This document shows positions 14,569-45,604 of a DNA stretch of 64,000 bases, in pieces (position 1 is the stretch's first letter; each line of letters opens with the position of its first letter). The notes under the pieces are model-generated. The model saw only the letters and a list, made by a program, of their open reading frames with translations. It ran no database searches and had not been told where the DNA came from. The translations under genes and the position numbers were made by a program. The stretch is from positions 132,910-196,909 of the forward strand of contig CAYWZQ010000001.1 of the NCBI GenBank assembly GCA_964462875.1. The letters are read 5' to 3'. The DNA is from an uncultured Nitrososphaerota archaeon. GTDB lineage: Archaea; Thermoproteota; Methanomethylicia; Culexarchaeales; Culexmicrobiaceae.

Positions 14569-16113
14569 TTAAAAGAGCATTAGAAACATCGGTGTTGGTA
14601 TGTAGATCATGTCATTACGCAGTCTTAATATATCTCGCGTTAGAACTATCTTACCTTTTTCAGGAACTATATGTGAAGGAGCTCCTCGATACTTTGATTC
14701 AATGATGAATCTATATTGAGCGTTTCCTTTCACAACACATAAGACGAAATCCGTTTCTTGCATTCCTTCTCTTGCTGGTCTATACATTAGAACTCTTTCA
14801 TATTCAACGCTTGGTATATGTTCGAATAACTGTTGAGCTAAAAGAAGATGAGCTGCTACGACACTCTCAACTAAATGACCTTTAAAGCTCGAGTCCCCAA
14901 CTATTTTCTTCGAATACTCAAATGGGTCGGGAATATTGTTGAGATATGAATATAATGCATGATATATGAATGGGTCTAGAACATAGTTCTTAGGCTTTCC
15001 TTGATAATTGGGTTTACAGCTACCATTTTCCCTCTCCTCTGGGTATGCAAAGAAGAATGTCCATGTAGTTCTAAGATAGTCCAGGTAACTTCTTAAACCA
15101 AAACGCCCTTTAGGTCTGGCATCTTCATTGCGACCAATAACCTCAGGTCGACATAGATCCAGAAGACCTGCAATCCTCTTAGGTTCTAAGAGAAAAGCTA
15201 GCACTCTTTTCAAATTCTCTGAGTCTAAACCAGCCTTCTCAGAATCCTTGACAAGTAGTTCCGCTACATCAACATAAAACTCTTTACTTATGTATTCATT
15301 CTTATAATATTCATCTATAGCTTTAGGATAGCCCCCGTGAATCAAGTATTCTTCGAACACTGTTTGGAGAAGTTGGAAATACTCGTCATATATTCTCCGG
15401 AAAGCCTCCGGAATTCTTCCTCGAGCAAGCTCCTTTAGTATCTCGAATCTTATTCTAGGAGTTCTAAGCTTGCGTAATGATAGGAACGAATCTATTTCCC
15501 GCCTAAGTGCTTCAACTACTTCTGCAAATCGTAATGGAACGTGAACTAGATTCCCTCCAAGGTTGAAGAGTTGTGCCAATCTGCCTTGCCTACCTCTTAG
15601 CTTACTAGCAGCCTCTGCCAAGTCCATAGAGTGACTACCAGCAGACACAATCTTCATACGCCCACTTTCAATTAAACCCATGTCATAGAGATTTTTCAGC
15701 GCTTGAGCCCATCCAGGATACATGGATGCTTCATCGAGAAAAACATACTTATCATTATTACTTGACATAGCTATGACTTCAAGAATCTCAATCAGTCTTA
15801 TATCTACCAGCCCTTCGTAGTCGAGTGAAATATAAAATATTGATTGAGGATTCACATTCTTTTCCTCGATGAGATACCTTATGAGGAGTTTAATTAATGT
15901 AGATTTACCTGCACGTCTAGGTCCCCGTATTGTGATTATACCATATGCACCCAGCTCAGCTATGTAACGTCTTAGATGGTAATAGAGTCTGGGTTCACGT
16001 CTAAGCATTGAATTGTAGAAGTTCTGAAGCAACGGGTCACGTTTATACCAGTACTTGTCTATCCACCAAGGATTATATTGCTTTAAAAGTTTCCTAAGTT
16101 CCCCGATGTTCAA
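14569..16113 (-). CDS. AAA+ ATPase, COG1373 / DUF4143 family
   Basis: N-terminal NPWW motif, Walker A GPRRAGKST, Walker B VFLDE. 514 aa. Confidence 0.7.
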   Translation of the reverse strand: MNIGELRKLLKQYNPWWIDKYWYKRDPLLQNFYNSMLRREPRLYYHLRRYIAELGAYGIITIRGPRRAGKSTLIKLLIRYLIEEKNVNPQSIFYISLDYEGLVDIRLIEILEVIAMSSNNDKYVFLDEASMYPGWAQALKNLYDMGLIESGRMKIVSAGSHSMDLAEAASKLRGRQGRLAQLFNLGGNLVHVPLRFAEVVEALRREIDSFLSLRKLRTPRIRFEILKELARGRIPEAFRRIYDEYFQLLQTVFEEYLIHGGYPKAIDEYYKNEYISKEFYVDVAELLVKDSEKAGLDSENLKRVLAFLLEPKRIAGLLDLCRPEVIGRNEDARPKGRFGLRSYLDYLRTTWTFFFAYPEERENGSCKPNYQGKPKNYVLDPFIYHALYSYLNNIPDPFEYSKKIVGDSSFKGHLVESVVAAHLLLAQQLFEHIPSVEYERVLMYRPAREGMQETDFVLCVVKGNAQYRFIIESKYRGAPSHIVPEKGKIVLTRDILRLRNDMIYIPTPMFLMLF

Positions 16114-16370
16114 CTTTTACTACACCTCTTTGCAAGTAGGACCAAATCCTTCTCTATGCGGCCAACCTCTCGTGCCAATTGCTCATACTTCTTCTCAAGC
16201 TCTTTGATACGAGTAATAAGGTCTCCATATTCAGCCTCTCCAATGAATTCTAGAACAAGTCTCTTCACTAGAGCTGGCACCGACAAACCTTGCTGTTCAG
16301 CAATCTTTCTCAGCTTTCCATACTGCTCTTCACTAAGATAGAATTTAACTTGTTTCAACCTACTCACCAT
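16110..16370 (-). CDS. ribbon-helix-helix (CopG/Arc-like) DNA-binding protein
   Basis: 86 aa. KFYLSEEQYGKLRKIAEQQGLSVPALVKRLVLE followed by a coiled-coil tail. 4-nt overlap with the ATPase gene. Confidence 0.5.
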   Translation of the reverse strand: MVSRLKQVKFYLSEEQYGKLRKIAEQQGLSVPALVKRLVLEFIGEAEYGDLITRIKELEKKYEQLAREVGRIEKDLVLLAKRCSKS

Positions 16371-18890: not shown

Positions 18891-19382
18891 TTAGGGTTCT
18901 ATATCAAAGGAAATTTCGAGGAGTTGTTTTGAAACTCTAAATCTCGTTTTCCTTATTTTGATGCAGCCTATGTATTTTGACGAGCTAGTATGTCGTTTAT
19001 TGCATGCATTTATATTCCATATACTACCATCAGTATCATAGACAATCACTATACTCAGCTCTCTAATATGCTCCGGTACTGGAAATAGATCGTAAATTAT
19101 ATTTCCATAGATCCTCTCAGCCTCATCCCTCGGAAGAACTTTAACTTCAATTTTAAGATCCTCCTCAATCTTCCTATTTGCAAGCTCCTCAATAGCTCTA
19201 ATCTCATCCGATGTTGGTTTTCGATTAAATTTAACAGTTAAGCGACCATGCTTACCATGCACATAAGTACTTGCAGTCCACATAGCATCAGAACCGAGAA
19301 CCTTGACAACAGCACCCTTAAGCACATGCAGAGCCGTATGGGTGCGCACCTCATCAGGATACACATCCACACAGCCAGACAT
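18891..19382 (-). CDS. alaX: alanyl-tRNA editing protein AlaX-S
   Basis: [20 protein letters not shown]...[13 protein letters not shown]...NACNKRHT...IKIRKTRF closely matches Pyrococcus AlaX-S. Start moved to the internal ATG; the track ORF extends to 19502 with an implausible hydrophobic leader. Confidence 0.7.
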
Positions 19383-19508
19383 AGCTCCACTAACAACGAC
19401 ATACGCTCCTTCAAATAAAAAAGTTTCCAAACCTCTATCAACAGTAAGAAGCATGGAAAGCAAAATTAACAAGTAAAGGAGAATGGCGAGCGCTGATGCC
19501 ATTAAGAT

Positions 19509-20564
19509 CTAATCTTCAACTTCCCGTTGAATACTCAAAGAATATTTATACACTAAATTCCCGTCAATCACATATAAGTCAGCATTATAATCATCAATTC
19601 TCCTCATTAGTACTGGCCTACCTAATCCCTCAGCTATTTTCCTTAAAGCATCAATACCATCAACATCAACCACCATGCTACTAGCCTCATCAATCGGAGA
19701 TCCACCAACCTCAATTAAGTAATCCCTTAAAGGCTTCACTACAGAATCAACAGTCTTCCTAGAAAACTTCCGCCTATCAGAGACGTAAATATAGGTTGCA
19801 GGGGCTAAGCAGAATAGGCCGACTCCTAAAACTACATATGAAATATTAAGCTTATTCCTAACATCTTCATTAATAATAATGCTCTTACCAGTAAGTTGCC
19901 CAGGCGCTCTATGCTCCAAATTTAAAATATTAATTACTCTATCACCAGCACCGTGTCTGAAATTTAACCTCAATGTATGATTAATTGGTAATCTAATCAT
20001 ACCATGCCTTGTAACTGATAAGGCAATTATATTGGCAATTAAAAGTAGATCGTGCTCACCCGAATACACTTCAATTTCATCCTCAATATTCCTGATTAAG
20101 GACAATAATTTACCAATATTAAAAGTAAAGTTCTCATTTATTACTACGGTATTATTACCCTTAACATTAAACTTAGGAGTAGTAAGAATAGTTTTCCTCC
20201 ACTTACCGGGGGATACTATGACCATTTTAAAGCTATAAGTTAATACTGTTGATGCAGGTTCACTAACCCTAAATGTAAAGCTATAATTTACATCAATAGA
20301 CCTAACTATGCTTAGGAAAAGTACTCCCTCGCCGGGGCCGAGCATGCTCGCATTATCATAAATTATGTTAGGAATTAAGTGAGCAACATAATTATACCGA
20401 CTGTAGCCTTCATAAGTACATAAAACACGAACTTTCTCCTCAACAACCGGCTCATTAAACAGCATTACAAGCGAAAACGCTGAAGAAGCTATCAGCGCAA
20501 TTGACAGAAGCAATAGAACTACGAACTTAATTTTATTATTTTTAGATAAAACCATGCACCTCAC
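19509..20564 (-). CDS. bitopic membrane protein (N- and C-terminal TM, extracellular glycosylated domain, cytoplasmic tail) in the TasA/SipW-like locus
   Basis: 351 aa. TM near residues 12-35 and 240-260, many N-x-S/T sequons. Confidence 0.4.
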   Translation of the reverse strand: MRCMVLSKNNKIKFVVLLLLSIALIASSAFSLVMLFNEPVVEEKVRVLCTYEGYSRYNYVAHLIPNIIYDNASMLGPGEGVLFLSIVRSIDVNYSFTFRVSEPASTVLTYSFKMVIVSPGKWRKTILTTPKFNVKGNNTVVINENFTFNIGKLLSLIRNIEDEIEVYSGEHDLLLIANIIALSVTRHGMIRLPINHTLRLNFRHGAGDRVINILNLEHRAPGQLTGKSIIINEDVRNKLNISYVVLGVGLFCLAPATYIYVSDRRKFSRKTVDSVVKPLRDYLIEVGGSPIDEASSMVVDVDGIDALRKIAEGLGRPVLMRRIDDYNADLYVIDGNLVYKYSLSIQREVED

Positions 20565-20624
20565 TCCAAAGATACATGATTAAAGGTAGAAGCAAAATTA
20601 GTATAAAAACTTTATGCAACATTT

Positions 20625-21251
20625 TCAGCCTCCCCCAATATTCCAGCTTGAAGTTTCAATAGTCACTGTGAATTTCAATTGATCAATTGAAGTACAGTTC
20701 TCAAATACAAATTTAAATAGTATTGGAAGCTTGCAATTAGGATCCAAAATTCTGGATATGAATATGCTATATGACGACTCATTTAGTGGAAACCTATATT
20801 TACCATAACTTAAATTGCTACATATCTTTTTAAAGTTAAAGCATTTACAATAACTCGTATAAGCCATATAAATCGTCATATAACCCTCATTTCCACCTAA
20901 AATCAAGTCAAATAATATACATCGAACTCTAATAGGCACAGTCCCTACATTCTTTACAATTAAGTAAAGACAGAAATAATCGCCCTCAGAAACATTATAG
21001 CACTCTACTTGAAGCATTAAATCACCAACCCTATCAACTGAACAATAAAAATTACTATTGCAACAACAGCATTTAGAACATGAATAAGCATTATAACATA
21101 TGATCTTGGAATGGGTTGAACCAACTTTTATTATACCCTGTATTTGCATAAAATCCCTCCAGCAACTATATGCAGCACCATTTATCATCAACACGATGAT
21201 CATGAAGACAAAAATGAGCAATAGTCCACGTTGTCTACCTGATCTACTCAC
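20625..21251 (-). CDS. Cys-rich SipW-cognate-type signal peptide protein (third paralog)
   Basis: Signal region LLLIFVFMIIVLMINGAAYSCWRDFMQIQG aligns with the YAHWSDRVTIQG of its neighbours. Shared KNVGTVP motif. CYNAYSCSKCCCCNSNFYC. Confidence 0.5.
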   Translation of the reverse strand: MSRSGRQRGLLLIFVFMIIVLMINGAAYSCWRDFMQIQGIIKVGSTHSKIICYNAYSCSKCCCCNSNFYCSVDRVGDLMLQVECYNVSEGDYFCLYLIVKNVGTVPIRVRCILFDLILGGNEGYMTIYMAYTSYCKCFNFKKICSNLSYGKYRFPLNESSYSIFISRILDPNCKLPILFKFVFENCTSIDQLKFTVTIETSSWNIGGG

Positions 21252-22507
21252 TTACACCACCTACCGAACTTCCTCCTCATCCTACGAGCATAATAGAAAG
21301 CTATTAGAACAGTTATCGAGGCAATAACTATTGAAAGCAAGTAATAACCATGAATAAAGCTGACAATAAATCCAATGCAGCGCTTCAAGTAAATTGAAAT
21401 CCAACCAATTTTAGGAATAACTAACAGCAACTTCCCCTTTACCTGACTCGGATGAATGGGATTGAAATCAATCACCTTATTAGCATCACCCTTAGTTATA
21501 AAACGACCACCCCTAATCTCCATAACTCTATGTAAGGTCATACCGCCATCCGAGAAATACAAAATTACATCGCCGGGCTTAATTTTGCTAGCTGGAACCT
21601 TAACAACAAGCGCTATATCGCCAACATCCATTGTCGGCCTCATACTACCACTCAAAACAACTGAAGGAAAAACACCAAGCAACCCAGTACTCAACCAAAC
21701 AGCAAAAACAAATGCCAAAACAACCACTATGAAACCAATAGGCCTATCCTTACTCCACCCACCTTTAAACTCAATTCTCAAGCCAGCACGCCTAAGAACA
21801 CTTAATGGAATAGCATTATCAATTACAATTAAACTCACAGTCGGGGCAACTACACCTATGAGCGATTCAAGACCCCAAGTCAAATCAGGGAGTATTGGCG
21901 AAAACCATTGAAACAATTTCAATGGAGCAAGATAAACTATTGAGCCTAATGGACCGGAGATAAAAGCTAAGTATGAAGCAAGCAAGTTAACTGCTAAGTC
22001 AGGAAGATATTTGGAACCTAAAAATTCAACAATTGAAAAGGGCTTAACTGGAGGATAAAGCATGCTTATTAAGGCGAAAGTTCTACTATAAAAAATAGAG
22101 ACAATTAAGATAGCTAAAATAAACTTCCTCTTGCCATAACTCCTCAAAATGCAAGACCTAGAAAATTCACTACCAATAAGAGAAGCTGAAATCATCATCA
22201 AATTGAGAATCACGTTAACTGGAGTTAACACAACTGGACTTCGACCGTACTTTGAAAATAAACCACCATCAATTTGCATTATTATTTGAAATAATGATGC
22301 CATTAAAGCAACTAATAAAACATAATTGTTAAAATTAAGTAGTAACTCTCTAAAATCACAAGACCATAAAGCTATTAAAGCTACACTTATCCAGCAAATG
22401 GATGGGAAAAAGTATGCAAAATATCCAGAAGGCTTATAGAGATACATTAAGATTTGAATTGCAATTAAAGCACAAATTAAAGGGACATTCCTATCCATGG
22501 AAAACAC
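21248..22507 (-). CDS. type I signal peptidase (S26, SipW/archaeal type) fused to an N-terminal polytopic membrane domain
   Basis: C-terminal boxes SGSMRPT, GD, HRV, GDAN. About 270-aa N-terminal multi-TM domain and a C-terminal TM. Confidence 0.6.
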   Translation of the reverse strand: MFSMDRNVPLICALIAIQILMYLYKPSGYFAYFFPSICWISVALIALWSCDFRELLLNFNNYVLLVALMASLFQIIMQIDGGLFSKYGRSPVVLTPVNVILNLMMISASLIGSEFSRSCILRSYGKRKFILAILIVSIFYSRTFALISMLYPPVKPFSIVEFLGSKYLPDLAVNLLASYLAFISGPLGSIVYLAPLKLFQWFSPILPDLTWGLESLIGVVAPTVSLIVIDNAIPLSVLRRAGLRIEFKGGWSKDRPIGFIVVVLAFVFAVWLSTGLLGVFPSVVLSGSMRPTMDVGDIALVVKVPASKIKPGDVILYFSDGGMTLHRVMEIRGGRFITKGDANKVIDFNPIHPSQVKGKLLLVIPKIGWISIYLKRCIGFIVSFIHGYYLLSIVIASITVLIAFYYARRMRRKFGRWCK

Positions 22508-22571
22508 CCCAATGGTGTTTAATGTAAAAAATAGGGAAAATAGAGGGTACTCTAAGCATCGGCTAACACTC

Positions 22572-23270
22572 CTATGCCTTATTCCACTGAACCGCCACTA
22601 CTTCAACGTATATCTTGTATGTATGGCACTCTTCTGCTTCCTGGTAGAATTCTAAGTCAATTTCACACTTATGAGTACGACACGGGTCGATCTGGTATGG
22701 CAGCTGATTTGTAACTTCAAGCCATATAACGGGTATATCAATACCTATATCGACAACTCCATTACCATTTACGTCCTCGTATAGATCCCCTATGTAATCT
22801 CCATCGGGATCATACCATAGCAATCTATATATCAAGTGACCTGTTGCATTCCTTTTTTCACCAGTTATATTGAAACCCACTAGAGATAGTGGTATTGTTC
22901 CAATATTATGCAACTTAAATGTTGTTCTAACCAAGTATTGTGGATATGCATTATCAACTACAATGACTAGTCTCTTATACCCCTTCTTTCCAGTATGTAC
23001 ATCTGTAATTTCATCTTCATACCAACTACTGCAATTGCCGACATTCTTACCTAGCCATTCCCCTTCATATATCTGTGAATTGTTCCAATAATACTCTATG
23101 CTATGTGGAGGCTCAACCCAATCGAATGCAAGAGTCAGACTTCCCATTTCAGCTGTACCTTGAATAGTAACTCTATCACTCCAGTGAGCGTAGGTAACGC
23201 CGATCACAGAGAGCACCATTATTAAAAGTAAAGAAAGGATGCCAGATTTTCGAGCGTTCATGTTCATCAC
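22572..23270 (-). CDS. TasA/camelysin-like secreted protein with SipW-cognate-class signal peptide
   Basis: ILSLLLIMVLSVIGVTYAHWSD. KLHNIGTIPLS motif. C-terminal ECHTYKIYVEVVAVQWNKA shared with the paralog. Confidence 0.55.
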   Translation of the reverse strand: MMNMNARKSGILSLLLIMVLSVIGVTYAHWSDRVTIQGTAEMGSLTLAFDWVEPPHSIEYYWNNSQIYEGEWLGKNVGNCSSWYEDEITDVHTGKKGYKRLVIVVDNAYPQYLVRTTFKLHNIGTIPLSLVGFNITGEKRNATGHLIYRLLWYDPDGDYIGDLYEDVNGNGVVDIGIDIPVIWLEVTNQLPYQIDPCRTHKCEIDLEFYQEAEECHTYKIYVEVVAVQWNKA

Positions 23271-23285
23271 CAGCCACTAGCCCGT

Positions 23286-23969
23286 CTATGCCTTATTCCA
23301 CTGTACGAAATCAAGCACCAAGCTGAATGTGTAAGTATGACACTCTTCTGCAGTTTGCTTGAAGTCTATGTCAACAACTACTGGATACTCATGGCATGGC
23401 TCAAGCTGCCAATCCTCCGGTACATAGGCAACTATCCTCACATTCATTACTTCTCCTGCTGGATCAACTAGTGCACCCTCAATTATCCATGCACCTATAG
23501 TATCGTTGTAGACCTCTATATCTACTCTAAAGGATAGATCCTCACCATCAGTTTCATCAAAACCAGAGAACGTAGTATTAACCAGTACTGCAGGTATCGT
23601 ACCAGCATTCTTCAATATAAACTCAATGTGTACATCCCATTGTGGATAAGCATTTTCAAATAACATAGTCAATTTCTTAGCAACCGTCTGTGGTGGTGTG
23701 TGATGCGTACTAGTCTCAAAATCGCTTAATGTAATAGTTGCATTTGCAACCCAAGGCTTGGATGGAGTGAAATCTTCTTCAGGAACACCATTAGTTGTCT
23801 CATAGTAAGTTAGTGAATCATTTAGAATACCTACTATAAGCTCGCCCATGTGAACGGTTCCCTCAATGGTGACAGTATCGCTCCAGTGAGCATAGGTTAC
23901 TCCGAGTACTGTTAGAGCAATTATTAGTAGTCCAAATGTGCTAAATAGACTCTTACTATTCAATATCAT
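23286..23969 (-). CDS. TasA/camelysin-like secreted protein with SipW-cognate-class signal peptide (paralog)
   Basis: LLIIALTVLGVTYAHWSD. ILKNAGTIPAVLV. C-terminal ECHTYTFSLVLDFVQWNKA. Confidence 0.55.
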   Translation of the reverse strand: MILNSKSLFSTFGLLIIALTVLGVTYAHWSDTVTIEGTVHMGELIVGILNDSLTYYETTNGVPEEDFTPSKPWVANATITLSDFETSTHHTPPQTVAKKLTMLFENAYPQWDVHIEFILKNAGTIPAVLVNTTFSGFDETDGEDLSFRVDIEVYNDTIGAWIIEGALVDPAGEVMNVRIVAYVPEDWQLEPCHEYPVVVDIDFKQTAEECHTYTFSLVLDFVQWNKA

Positions 23970-24144
23970 ATCACCTCTTATGTTCGGGCTATCATCGCCC
24001 AGGACCTACTGATCCTAGGCTTTAACGGGGGCTCCCGCTTAGTCCCCCGTGCAGGTTAGAATATGAAAATTTATTATGATTATAGATTTCGAATCAATTG
24101 ACCTGAAAATAAACCAATTGGACTAAAATATATAAAAATAAATT

Positions 24145-24492
24145 TCATTGAGGCCGCTTTAATTGCAATCGAATTAGAAGGGAATCCAGCTTTTTAAAGT
24201 CATCACTTAATCTGTATAATTTAATTTTCCTGTCACTCATGATTGAGTACTCGATTAATCCGATGTCTATGAGGTATTGGAGTTTATCTGCTGTTTTTGA
24301 ATATGATAGGCCTACTCTTCTTGCCAGCCTTCTTAAAGTTATTTCCTTACTTTTACATATTTCAACTACTATTTTAAATAGTAAGTCTTCATTGAAAACT
24401 CTTTTTGTAAGCTCCATTAGTAGTAGGGTTCGAGCATCAATTTCCCGTGAACTTAGCTCATTTATATTATGATCGGAGGGCTCGATTTTCAA
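24145..24492 (-). CDS. winged helix-turn-helix transcription regulator
   Basis: ITLRRLARRVGLSYSKTADKLQYLIDIGLIEY. Paralog of 24586..24867. Confidence 0.5.
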   Translation of the reverse strand: MKIEPSDHNINELSSREIDARTLLLMELTKRVFNEDLLFKIVVEICKSKEITLRRLARRVGLSYSKTADKLQYLIDIGLIEYSIMSDRKIKLYRLSDDFKKLDSLLIRLQLKRPQ

Positions 24493-24585
24493 TTTTTATC
24501 AAAACTAAATATTCGAATGCTTACGTTATTTAGTTCCGCTCCATTTGGGATATTATCAGACCATTTGGATGAGTGACTTATAAAC

Positions 24586-24867
24586 TCATGTTAGAATATC
24601 CCTAAGTTTTTGATATTTCTTTGAAAGTCTATAAACTTTTACCCTAGGACTTGCATAGAAATATTCCACAACTCCCTTCTCAACTAGGAAATCGAGATGC
24701 TTAGCTAAATTTGAATGCGAAATTCCCACTTTTCTAGCAAGCTCTCTTAAGCTTGCACCCTCAATTTTACATAATTCAACTATTATTCTAAATTTCACAT
24801 TATCCTTATACGTTTGCTTTAAAAATTCGACAAGCATATTTTCATAATTATGTAAATTAGAAGGCAA
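24586..24867 (-). CDS. winged helix-turn-helix transcription regulator (paralog)
   Basis: ASLRELARKVGISHSNLAKHLDFLVEKGVVEY. Confidence 0.5.
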   Translation of the reverse strand: MPSNLHNYENMLVEFLKQTYKDNVKFRIIVELCKIEGASLRELARKVGISHSNLAKHLDFLVEKGVVEYFYASPRVKVYRLSKKYQKLRDILT

Positions 24868-25210
24868 TAATGCACCTCCAAACTTTATTCAACCTGCGAA
24901 ATACTCGTACTTAAAAGGTTTATCTCTTATTACATATATATTTTTGACTAAATTTTTTCAAAAAATTTATGATAGCGAATTTAAAATTGTATAGTTTTTC
25001 ACCTAAACCATCAAGGCGCACTAATAGCCGCTCAGTGGAAATATTTGAATCCTTAGCTTTACTTCATATATTTCGTGAATTTTCATGAATTCTTGTCAGT
25101 TGCGAGAAGATTCTTCATCTTTAATCCAGAGACCGTCGTTTCATCATCCATTTAGTATAGTGGTTTGACACTTAATTTAAAATTTGCTTTTTCTCATCAA
25201 TTAATAGCTA

Positions 25211-26245
25211 TTGATGGGAGATGAAGTTGAATTGAAGTTTTTACTTATAACCTTGCCGGGACTTGAGAAGGCTATTGAAATTGAATTGAGTAGATTTGGG
25301 TTTAATGGGGAAGTGATTTCAAGAGCTAGAGCTGTTGGGGAGCTTAATGAACCAGAGAAATTGCGGACTATTGAATCTTATGCTGAAATTCTCGCTGAAG
25401 ATACTGTTAGGGATGAATCTAGAAGGGGGATTCGACTTTTAATTAGGAGAATCTTGATTGAAAATCCTGAAGTTAGAGATGCTATTGAAAATGCTAGGAC
25501 AGTTACTATTAAAGGCTCAGTGTACTGTAGATTAAAGTGCCTAGATTATAGAATGCTTGAATTAATTGCAGCTAGAGAAATTACTAGGGTTTTTAGGGGT
25601 ATATCAGTTAAGCCGAAAATGGGAGACCTGGTTTTGAGGGTTGAAATTCTAAATAATAAGCTAATAATTGCTAAGGAATTGAAATCTAGGCTTCATGAAA
25701 GAGGCTATACGAGATTCAAGCATCCAGCAATGATCAATCCATTGGCAGCATCATCAATGAGCTTATTAGCTAACATTAGTAGTAGAGACGTAATATTAGA
25801 TCCATTTTGCGGTGCTGGAACTATACCAATAGAAGCGAACTTGACATGTGGATGCGAGGCACATGGATCCGACTTAAATAGGGAATACATTAAGGGGGCA
25901 GTAATTAACTCTAAAGAAGCCAATGTGAGAAGTGGAACATGCTTCTTCATATCATCAATTAAAGACCTCAGCGTAAGAAATGCATATAATGCATTGATAA
26001 CTGATCCGCCGAGGGGCATTAGACTTAAAGTCGATAGCCTCAAAGCAATATATAGGTACCTAATTGAAGCCGCGGGCAAAGCATTATTGGATAAAGGTAA
26101 ACTGATCGTGAGTACATTAAATAGGAATGCCAAATTACTAATTAGAATAGCTGAAATGACTGGAAAATTCAACCTCACAAGTAAAGTAGATTATGTGCAG
26201 GGAGGATACTTCTGCTCAATAATAATCCTCGAATTCACATCCTAG
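25211..26245 (+). CDS. THUMP-domain tRNA (guanine-N2) methyltransferase, Trm14/TrmN-like
   Basis: THUMP N-terminal region. SAM-MTase motifs DPFCGAGTIP and LITDPPRG. Confidence 0.6.
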   Translation: MMGDEVELKFLLITLPGLEKAIEIELSRFGFNGEVISRARAVGELNEPEKLRTIESYAEILAEDTVRDESRRGIRLLIRRILIENPEVRDAIENARTVTIKGSVYCRLKCLDYRMLELIAAREITRVFRGISVKPKMGDLVLRVEILNNKLIIAKELKSRLHERGYTRFKHPAMINPLAASSMSLLANISSRDVILDPFCGAGTIPIEANLTCGCEAHGSDLNREYIKGAVINSKEANVRSGTCFFISSIKDLSVRNAYNALITDPPRGIRLKVDSLKAIYRYLIEAAGKALLDKGKLIVSTLNRNAKLLIRIAEMTGKFNLTSKVDYVQGGYFCSIIILEFTS

Positions 26246-45492: not shown

Positions 45493-45604
45493 GCCGGGGT
45501 AGCCTAGTGGTAAGGCGCAGGCCTCGAGATCAAAAAGATAATGGGGCTAGAAAGCCTGTGCCCGCTCAGCGGGCTCGCGGGTTCGAATCCCGCCCCCGGC
45601 GCCA
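45493..45604 (+). tRNA. tRNA-Ser (anticodon CGA) with about 25-nt intron at the canonical 37/38 position and long variable arm
   Basis: GCCGGGG acceptor. Anticodon arm CAGGC-CUCGAG[intron]A-GCCUG. Variable arm UGCCCGCUCAGCGGGCUC. T arm GCGGG-UUCGAAU-CCCGC. CCA. Confidence 0.75.

Follow-up and report, generated by a model that had tools for sequence, protein, structure and literature searches.

The gene row and its probable fibre subunits

The DNA examined is a 64,000-nucleotide stretch from an uncultured Nitrososphaerota archaeon (GenBank assembly GCA_964462875.1, contig CAYWZQ010000001.1, positions 132,910 to 196,909 of the forward strand), which is called the window below. At window positions 19509-24867 lies a row of seven genes that is very probably an operon for an extracellular matrix fibre of the AbpX type, a branch of the TasA superfamily. 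In the direction of transcription, the order is two winged helix-turn-helix (wHTH) regulators, a leader RNA, the subunits A and B, a signal peptidase, a Cys-rich minor subunit, and a DUF5305 protein. All seven open reading frames (ORFs) are on the minus strand, exactly where an initial annotation made from the letters alone had placed them. The gaps between the last five genes, from subunit A to the DUF5305 gene, are 15, 64, -4, and 60 nt; the start of the Cys-rich gene overlaps the stop codon of the peptidase gene by 4 nt. A scan for sigma-70 promoters and terminators, which is not applicable to archaea, gave no excess over shuffled sequences.

The AbpX-like subunits A (23286..23969, minus strand, 227 aa) and B (22572..23270, minus strand, 232 aa) are paralogs with 36% identity and share the signal, the donor strand, and a C-terminal motif. 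An alignment with the Cys-rich protein bore out the motifs from which the locus was recognized. A and B have G-V-T-Y-A-H-W-S-D, the Cys-rich protein has N-G-A-A-Y-S-C-W-R-D, and in all three this is followed by x-x-I-[EQ]-G and by an internal N-x-G-T-[IV]-P. The C-terminal E-E-C-H-T-Y...V-Q-W-N-K-A is found in A and B. In a set of 109 subunit homologs, the Trp residue at mature position 2 (W2) never varies, and the conservation is at least 90% for D4, for the residues of NAYPQ and GTI, for two Cys residues, and for C-H-x-Y...Q-W-N. As judged from these alignments, the motifs are family features and not chance. With the model of the SipW-cognate signal (TIGR04088, cutoff 19), A scores 22.7 bits and B 19.1 bits, the latter only just over the cutoff. 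The model does not match the Cys-rich protein, which has the same signal by alignment. Thus, the assignment of this signal to all three proteins is backed by the model for A and B and by alignment for the third. In subunit A, the signal peptide takes up residues 1-27 (23889-23969, minus strand), the predicted cleavage is TYA↓HWSD, and the donor strand lies at about 23835-23888 (minus strand). Subunit B matches the hidden Markov model (HMM) of the subunit family with E=6.9e-64.

The only significant sequence relative of subunit A in the PDB is AbpX of Pyrodictium abyssi (two entries), which is matched with E=2.4e-5 by a single-sequence phmmer search and with E=1.7e-9 by the family profile. The match consists of two stretches, the N-terminal strand (QWSETLSLSATISTGSL against xWsDtvtiegtvemGel) and the AYP...NxGTIPA core. 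According to a preprint of January 2026, the cryo-EM structure of AbpX is a calcium-coordinated donor-strand fibril, in which W2 and the acidic residue 4 are critical for the docking of the donor strand (bioRxiv 10.64898/2026.01.04.697558). In the same preprint, the AbpX homologs make up a clade of their own within the TasA superfamily, marked by an aromatic residue 2, an acidic residue 4, and an isoelectric point (pI) of about 4. The x-W-x-D signature of this clade is present as H-W-S-D in A and B and as C-W-R-D in the Cys-rich paralog. Mature A (pI 4.19, Asp plus Glu 16.5%) and mature B (pI 4.70, 14.7%) also have the low pI of about 4 and the Asp plus Glu content of about 15% that mark the clade. 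Going by sequence similarity, the closest named family is AbpX, and not TasA proper, camelysin, or AbpA.

The monomer model of subunit A is confident and all-beta with a free N-terminal strand, the first 18 residues being unstructured and amphipathic. The core is a jelly-roll or beta-sandwich resembling solved fibre subunits. A fold search matched four solved fibres of the TasA superfamily (the Saci_0406 thread, TasA, Tafi, and AbpA); the scores to the fibre subunits are modest, and the top Foldseek match is the TasA fibre 8aur. The anticipated beta-sandwich with a putative N-terminal donor strand was thus recovered in the structure prediction.

The third paralog (20625..21251, minus strand, 208 aa) is a divergent AbpX-like minor subunit in the "tip" position. 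It has 16 Cys residues (7.7%), including CSKCCCCNSNFYC, which is the highest Cys content among the 230 matches of the subunit HMM (median 1.7%) and among the window ORFs of at least 150 aa. With a mature pI of 8.3 and 7.3% Asp plus Glu, it lies outside the acidic range of the AbpX clade. Its N-terminal part combines a SipW-like signal with a stretch resembling a donor strand (AYS↓CWRDFMQIQG), and KNVGTVP is present as well. It matches the subunit-family HMM with E=5e-9, and hhalign aligned it to the family with 99.75% probability (E=3e-27) over the N-terminal 114 columns only, that is, the signal peptide, the donor strand, and the first half. A k-mer homolog search found only the protein itself. 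An exhaustive HMMER search of 1.84 billion representatives gave 15 matches at E<=1e-3 including the query, namely one relative with 43% identity and about a dozen marginal ones. From these comparisons, it appears to be a divergent, fast-evolving paralog of A and B that is otherwise nearly an orphan. In related loci, the proteins at the same position have the same N-terminus and KNxGTxP with fewer Cys residues, and those of the closest clade are still enriched (9-11 Cys). The Cys residues may serve in disulfide cross-linking or in the binding of metal or mineral.

The signal peptidase, the DUF5305 protein, and related loci

The signal peptidase I (21248..22507, minus strand, 419 aa) consists of a multi-transmembrane (multi-TM) domain (residues 1-255; 21743-22507, minus strand), a catalytic domain (residues 260-385; 21353-21730, minus strand), and a C-terminal TM helix. 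The catalytic domain matches the model of archaeal signal peptidase I, TIGR02228, with 85.1 bits (cutoff 51.85; residues 260-385). The boxes SGSMRPT, GD, HRV, and GDAN are present. S288, H326, R327, and D341 do not vary in 98 peptidase homologs and correspond in an alignment to the catalytic motifs found in human SEC11A/C, in keeping with the peptidase assignment of the initial annotation. Since its score with the equivalog model of Bacillus SipW is far under the cutoff (50.1 against 190), it is not SipW itself. The fusion to a large membrane domain also holds, as hydropathy and an AlphaFold2 (AF2) model place about nine TM helices ahead of the catalytic domain and one behind it. This architecture is common to 362 homologs. 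According to work on SipW, the general bacterial peptidase LepB cleaves poorly if the P2' residue is aromatic, which explains the need for a dedicated peptidase (PMC10269814); P2' is Trp here.

The last gene of the row (19509..20564, minus strand, 351 aa) encodes a DUF5305 membrane protein, a putative accessory subunit of the signal peptidase. It matches Pfam DUF5305 with 31.8 bits (cutoff 29) over residues 125-341. It had been taken for a bitopic membrane protein; it is a membrane protein, with two predicted TM segments (residues about 9-38 and 239-262) and not one. An accessory role of DUF5305 proteins with the signal peptidase was proposed both in the AbpX preprint (bioRxiv 10.64898/2026.01.04.697558) and in the tafi paper.

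Is this gene row found elsewhere? A scan by peptidase alignment with one genome per species yielded 80 peptidase-anchored loci, of which 68 have at least one gene matching the subunit HMM and 58 have a DUF5305 gene. The archaeal loci belong to Bathyarchaeia, Thermoprotei, Culexarchaeia, Hadesarchaea, Thermoplasmata, Archaeoglobales, and metagenome-assembled genomes (MAGs) labelled Nitrososphaeria, and the bacterial loci to Chloroflexota, Bacillota, and Deltaproteobacteria. The nearest species representative has 63% peptidase identity. Ca. Culexmicrobium cathedralense (L008) has exactly the order of the window, including the tandem wHTH pair upstream, and a dozen Bathyarchaeia and Thermoprotei loci come close to it. 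In most archaeal loci, a pair of A-type and B-type genes lies ahead of the peptidase gene. Thus, the five-gene core with its regulators is a stable and widespread module of archaea, Chloroflexota, Bacillota, and Deltaproteobacteria.

Some related loci differ in their protein sizes and gene numbers. In two Hadesarchaea loci (L010, 2267-4120; L012, 1242-3113), the multi-TM signal peptidase has a length of about 610-620 aa. Since the same ORF also matches the AbpX-like subunit HMM (E=6e-9 and 1e-13), a fusion of peptidase and subunit is suggested. The proteins P0132, P0134, P0135, P0137, and P0140 are of similar length (609-615 aa); P0132 and P0134 have no additional Pfam domain. In six bacterial loci from Deltaproteobacteria and Dehalococcoidia MAGs (L025, L026, L031, L034, L040, and L066), the DUF5305 homologs that adjoin the peptidase are about 530-550 aa long, about 200 aa more than the archaeal ones, and up to six tandem subunit paralogs lie upstream of the peptidase gene.

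The regulators and a structured leader RNA

The wHTH regulator 1 (24586..24867, minus strand, 93 aa) matches Pfam HTH_24 with 35.4 bits (cutoff 21.9) and also ArsR/MarR-type models. The wHTH regulator 2 (24145..24492, minus strand, 115 aa) matches HTH_24 with 21.9 bits, exactly the cutoff, and HVO_A0114 with 24.5 bits. They are paralogs of each other (41% identity, E=1e-22), and the two regulators of the initial annotation are confirmed. Homologs of them flank the fibre locus in 19 loci. The Lrs14 family was considered; since its score is far below the cutoff, the regulators are named only wHTH here.

A GC-rich, pseudoknotted 5' leader RNA (23981..24052, minus strand) was found in the 175-nt spacer ahead of subunit A; it matches a covariance model, R1, with 71.3 bits (E=1e-18). 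The RNA ends 11 nt before the start codon of subunit A, and the spacer has a Shine-Dalgarno-like GAGGUGA. The stem P1 (CGGGGG/CCCCCG) encloses a loop ACUA-N(2-8)-GGGAG and is followed by a GUUAAAG linker, a variable hairpin P2, GAUGAUAG, and CCC. The tail CCC can pair with the loop GGG, giving an H-type pseudoknot. R1 has no other good match in the window. The element recurs before the first subunit gene of other archaeal loci. Copies were found by R1 in 11 other archaeal peptidase-anchored loci, among them L008 (4425-4511), L009 (233-301), L010 (780-849), L011 (4394-4456), L014 (4399-4482), L016 (1791-1858), L019 (4586-4646), L021 (12-81), L022 (4405-4469), and L023 (3498-3577); no copy was found in the bacterial peptidase-anchored loci.

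An exact-pattern scan of metagenome contigs gave at least 120 stretches, and pooling with the earlier loci gave at least 106 unique instances. In an alignment of 28 sequences (A8), 93.2% of the cells are paired, each of the six pairs of P2 has changed on both sides, and two compensatory changes occur in P1; none of 500 shuffles reached the observed values. The loop and the tail also vary together. Among the matches listed, the loop GGGAG goes with the tail CCC in 79 cases and the loop GGGGAUnAG with the tail nUCCCC in 25 cases, and there is no mixed case. GGAGAU/AUCUCC is a compensatory variant of the pseudoknot.

Shorter and doubled forms were also found. Other Bathyarchaeia loci have a mini variant of 35 nt, CGUGCC-GAGGGWGG-GGCACG-UUAAAUAUA-CCC, immediately ahead of the Shine-Dalgarno sequence of AbpX-like genes (L013, 4390; L020, 4524; L029, 4579; L030, 3700 and 4558; L036, 2036). 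The two copies in L030 lie one ahead of each of two successive subunit genes. A generic scan for a GC-rich hairpin with GTTAAA behind it gave 19 sites in 864 kb, 18 of which are directly before AbpX-like genes. Many long-form leaders of Bathyarchaeia have a second, similar module upstream, GUGCC..GGCAC-GUUAAAUAUG-CCAUGGUC, in which pairing between loop and tail is possible. Rfam 15 gave nothing relevant at E<=1 over 19000-25400 or at E<=10 over 23950-24160, its best match being a chance match of 12 bits to a frameshift hairpin. A literature search by sequence strings and keywords found no earlier description. In all likelihood, the leader is a real, conserved, and structured element that is not in Rfam.

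Which genes lie downstream of this RNA? Among the matches listed, 95 metagenome instances could be assessed. The leader precedes AbpX-like genes in 61 of them, TasA/camelysin-like genes in 11, genes of secreted trypsin-like proteases in 8, and genes of other proteins with an N-terminal hydrophobic signal in 13. Thus, 93 of the 95 are before genes of proteins with such a signal and two are not. The favoured, still tentative reading is a riboswitch or protein-binding translational leader of a secreted-protein regulon, and a genuine switch is doubtful at this stage. Four other candidates were rejected. GAUGAUAG and ACUA misfit the consensus of a C/D box or K-turn. A conserved leader peptide starting at the AUG inside GAUGAUAG does not fit, as the upstream ORF varies from 3 to more than 60 codons. 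Against a simple hairpin sequestering the Shine-Dalgarno sequence, this sequence is unpaired in the minimum-free-energy fold. A preQ1-like leader has no Rfam match.

A few other features of the window were noted. The ORF at 18891-19502 (minus strand), 6 nt downstream of the DUF5305 gene, has an AlaX-type alanyl-tRNA editing domain (TIGR03683, E=2e-23; AlaXM, E=3e-14) and looks unrelated to the fibre locus. Its start is probably mis-called, because the annotated N-terminus is hydrophobic. An AAA_14/DUF4143 ATPase gene (514 aa; 14569-16370, minus strand) overlaps by 4 nt with a small upstream ORF of 86 aa with a coiled-coil-like sequence, and the two may form a two-gene module. A tRNA match at 45493-45601 (plus strand) spans 109 nt for a model of 71 positions, which suggests that the tRNA gene contains an intron, as is common in this archaeal group. 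No rRNA gene was found in the 64-kb window.

Proposed assembly of the fibre and comparison with known systems

Going by the models, the locus is most likely a chromosomal fibre operon of the TasA superfamily with a dedicated signal peptidase of the archaeal or endoplasmic reticulum (ER) type, whose product would polymerise by donor-strand complementation. The initial annotation had arrived at such a fibre operon, and the SipW-type signals, the all-beta model with its free strand, the fold matches, the sequence matches to AbpX, and the conserved catalytic triad agree with it. A, B, and the Cys-rich paralog would be exported by the Sec pathway via their SipW-type signal peptides. The signal peptidase (Ser288/His326/Asp341) would cleave after TYA, or after AYS in the Cys-rich protein, and expose the x-W-x-D donor strand. 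This amphipathic strand may then enter the open groove of the beta-sandwich of the next subunit. The result would be a chaperone-free fibril in which acidic A is the main component, B is a second or minor one, and the Cys-rich protein forms the cap or tip. Subunit A is likely the major subunit because its gene is first and is preceded by the leader RNA. The basic Cys-rich paralog could cap the fibre end that has an open groove, because it retains the donor strand. The DUF5305 protein and the CPBP-like domain of the peptidase are probably non-catalytic scaffolds for processing or hand-over at the membrane. The wHTH pair and the leader RNA probably control the expression.

Several points weigh against this reading. 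The identity of the major subunit and the end capped by the Cys-rich protein are suggested by gene order and analogy. Within the AbpX-like protein family, filaments have been observed only for P. abyssi AbpX. The Pfam profile of TasA/camelysin (Peptidase_M73), a check that had been proposed for the fibre assignment, stays under its threshold of 22.5 with 15.8 and 17.2 bits and covers only the signal region (residues about 11-50). In the profile alignment, the AbpX calcium ligands D18, D46, D48, and E52 are aligned to Ile, Pro, Gln, and Lys of subunit A. As the positions of these ligands are not conserved, one cannot simply assume the calcium-triggered mechanism of AbpX for subunit A. The fifth ligand, E142, lies outside the aligned region, and the loop alignment is uncertain at this divergence. 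Thus, the missing ligands lower the claim of calcium dependence and not the membership in the AbpX clade.

It is therefore quite possible, if somewhat short of probable, that an AbpX-like donor-strand fibre assembles here without calcium, or with another ion, contact, or site, such as a His residue of the SVHH loop with Asp4 of the incoming strand. Mature H62 is at least 90% conserved in the 109 homologs, and calcium coordination is predicted often, but not for every AbpX homolog (bioRxiv 10.64898/2026.01.04.697558). Against this, the acidic residue 4 of the donor strand is kept, the protein is as acidic as AbpX, and the acidic clusters differ between the models of AbpX homologs in the same preprint, apart from the unreliable loop alignment mentioned above.

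What is the function of the membrane domain of the peptidase? In the predicted structure, it has a CPBP/Rce1-like eight-helix fold, and the best structural match is SpdC. The catalytic motifs of CPBP/Rce1 proteins are EExxxR, FxxxH, and HxxxN. If the domain were an active CPBP-type intramembrane protease, it would make a second cleavage and not serve as a scaffold. This is unlikely. The domain has no invariant His residue in the 98 homologs; only E114 and R117 are invariant, and their spacing is E-x-x-R and not EExxxR. None of the 98 homologs matches a CPBP Pfam model, so the relationship is one of fold. SpdC is a member of the CPBP family that is not known to be catalytic. A literature search by keywords found no earlier link between the CPBP fold and a signal peptidase.

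It is very unlikely that the three SipW-signal proteins are secreted or surface monomers that do not polymerise and act as a camelysin-like protease, as an adhesin, or as an S-layer accessory. The weak Peptidase_M73 matches, the modest fold scores, and the fact that the fibre is so far a prediction would fit such monomers, but the M73 match is confined to the signal peptide and below the cutoff, the W2/D4 signature is conserved together with the unstructured N-terminal strand, and AbpX, the nearest relative with a solved structure, is a donor-strand fibril. Several paralogous subunits next to a dedicated peptidase are also what fibre loci typically contain.

The donor-strand fibre thus stays the preferred reading, and the by-products of its analysis, the leader RNA and the CPBP-like fold, outweigh the locus itself in importance. 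They can be joined in a speculative picture. The leader would be an undescribed class of archaeal cis-regulatory RNA, responsive to a ligand or protein, and the CPBP-like domain would be a non-catalytic platform that passes the donor strand to the growing fibre. In this picture, the RNA would co-regulate the TasA-superfamily fibre and other secreted-protein genes, including those of trypsin-like proteases, in Bathyarchaeia, Culexarchaeia, Hadesarchaea, and Archaeoglobales. A compact leader pseudoknot that goes nearly always with secreted-protein genes would be a rare case of dedicated post-transcriptional control in archaea, and may offer a handle on the regulation of the biofilm matrix and extracellular proteolysis in uncultured archaea. 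By analogy, it would be functionally like the bacterial c-di-GMP riboswitches found ahead of pilin and protease genes. The CPBP-like domain provides a testable idea of how chaperone-free fibres avoid polymerising before export. It differs from CPBP/Rce1/SpdC (Abi) proteins in lacking a match to the sequence model and the catalytic Glu-Glu, His, and His-Asn motifs.

Compared with the haloarchaeal Tat-fimbriae, or tafi system (TafA/C/E, the TafD peptidase, the DUF5305 protein TafG, and the TafB regulator), the locus differs in its subunits and peptidase. The tafi subunits use Tat signals and have no detectable sequence similarity to those found here, and TafD has four TM helices and two extracellular domains. 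For tafi, there is genetic evidence that pilin processing requires the locus-encoded TafD, and the association of DUF5305 with the peptidase was pointed out as well (tafi paper). The TasA-SipW-TapA system of Bacillus subtilis is alike in the SipW-type signal with an aromatic P2' residue, the adjoining signal peptidase of the archaeal/ER type, the beta-sandwich subunit, and the donor-strand assembly, which is predicted here. In contrast, the present locus has no TapA, its TasA/camelysin Pfam score is under the threshold, its peptidase has about ten TM helices instead of two, and it has a DUF5305 partner.

The AbpX loci are the closest. Those of P. abyssi (PDB 9sj2/9rhp), Zestosphaera, Ignisphaera, Desulfurococcus, Pyrobaculum ferrireducens, and Methanosuratincola share the x-W-x-[DE] strand, the AYP...NxGTIP core, and the acidic mature protein, and also the multi-TM signal peptidase I, the DUF5305 protein, a minor and a "tip" paralog, and adjacent transcription factors. 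For most archaeal abpX loci, the preprint reports genes of a minor subunit resembling AbpX, of a tip protein, of a signal peptidase I with ten TM helices, and of a DUF5305 accessory protein, joined occasionally by transcription factors (bioRxiv 10.64898/2026.01.04.697558). The combination of a ten-TM signal peptidase I with a DUF5305 protein, which marks the loci of the AbpX clade, is present here. The make-up had been thought unusual and undescribed. Since the preprint gives the same components as typical, it is not new, and the same order recurs in many archaeal MAG loci; the locus type is already known as the AbpX kind. On the other hand, the subunits here are about 40 residues longer and do not keep the AbpX calcium ligands in position, and the extreme Cys content of the minor subunit and the structured leader RNA set the locus apart; the preprint does not mention a leader RNA. 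Its text does not name the Culexarchaeia/Bathyarchaeia-like MAG lineage either. Thus, the present locus extends the AbpX biomatrix system into Culexarchaeia/Bathyarchaeia-like sediment archaea.

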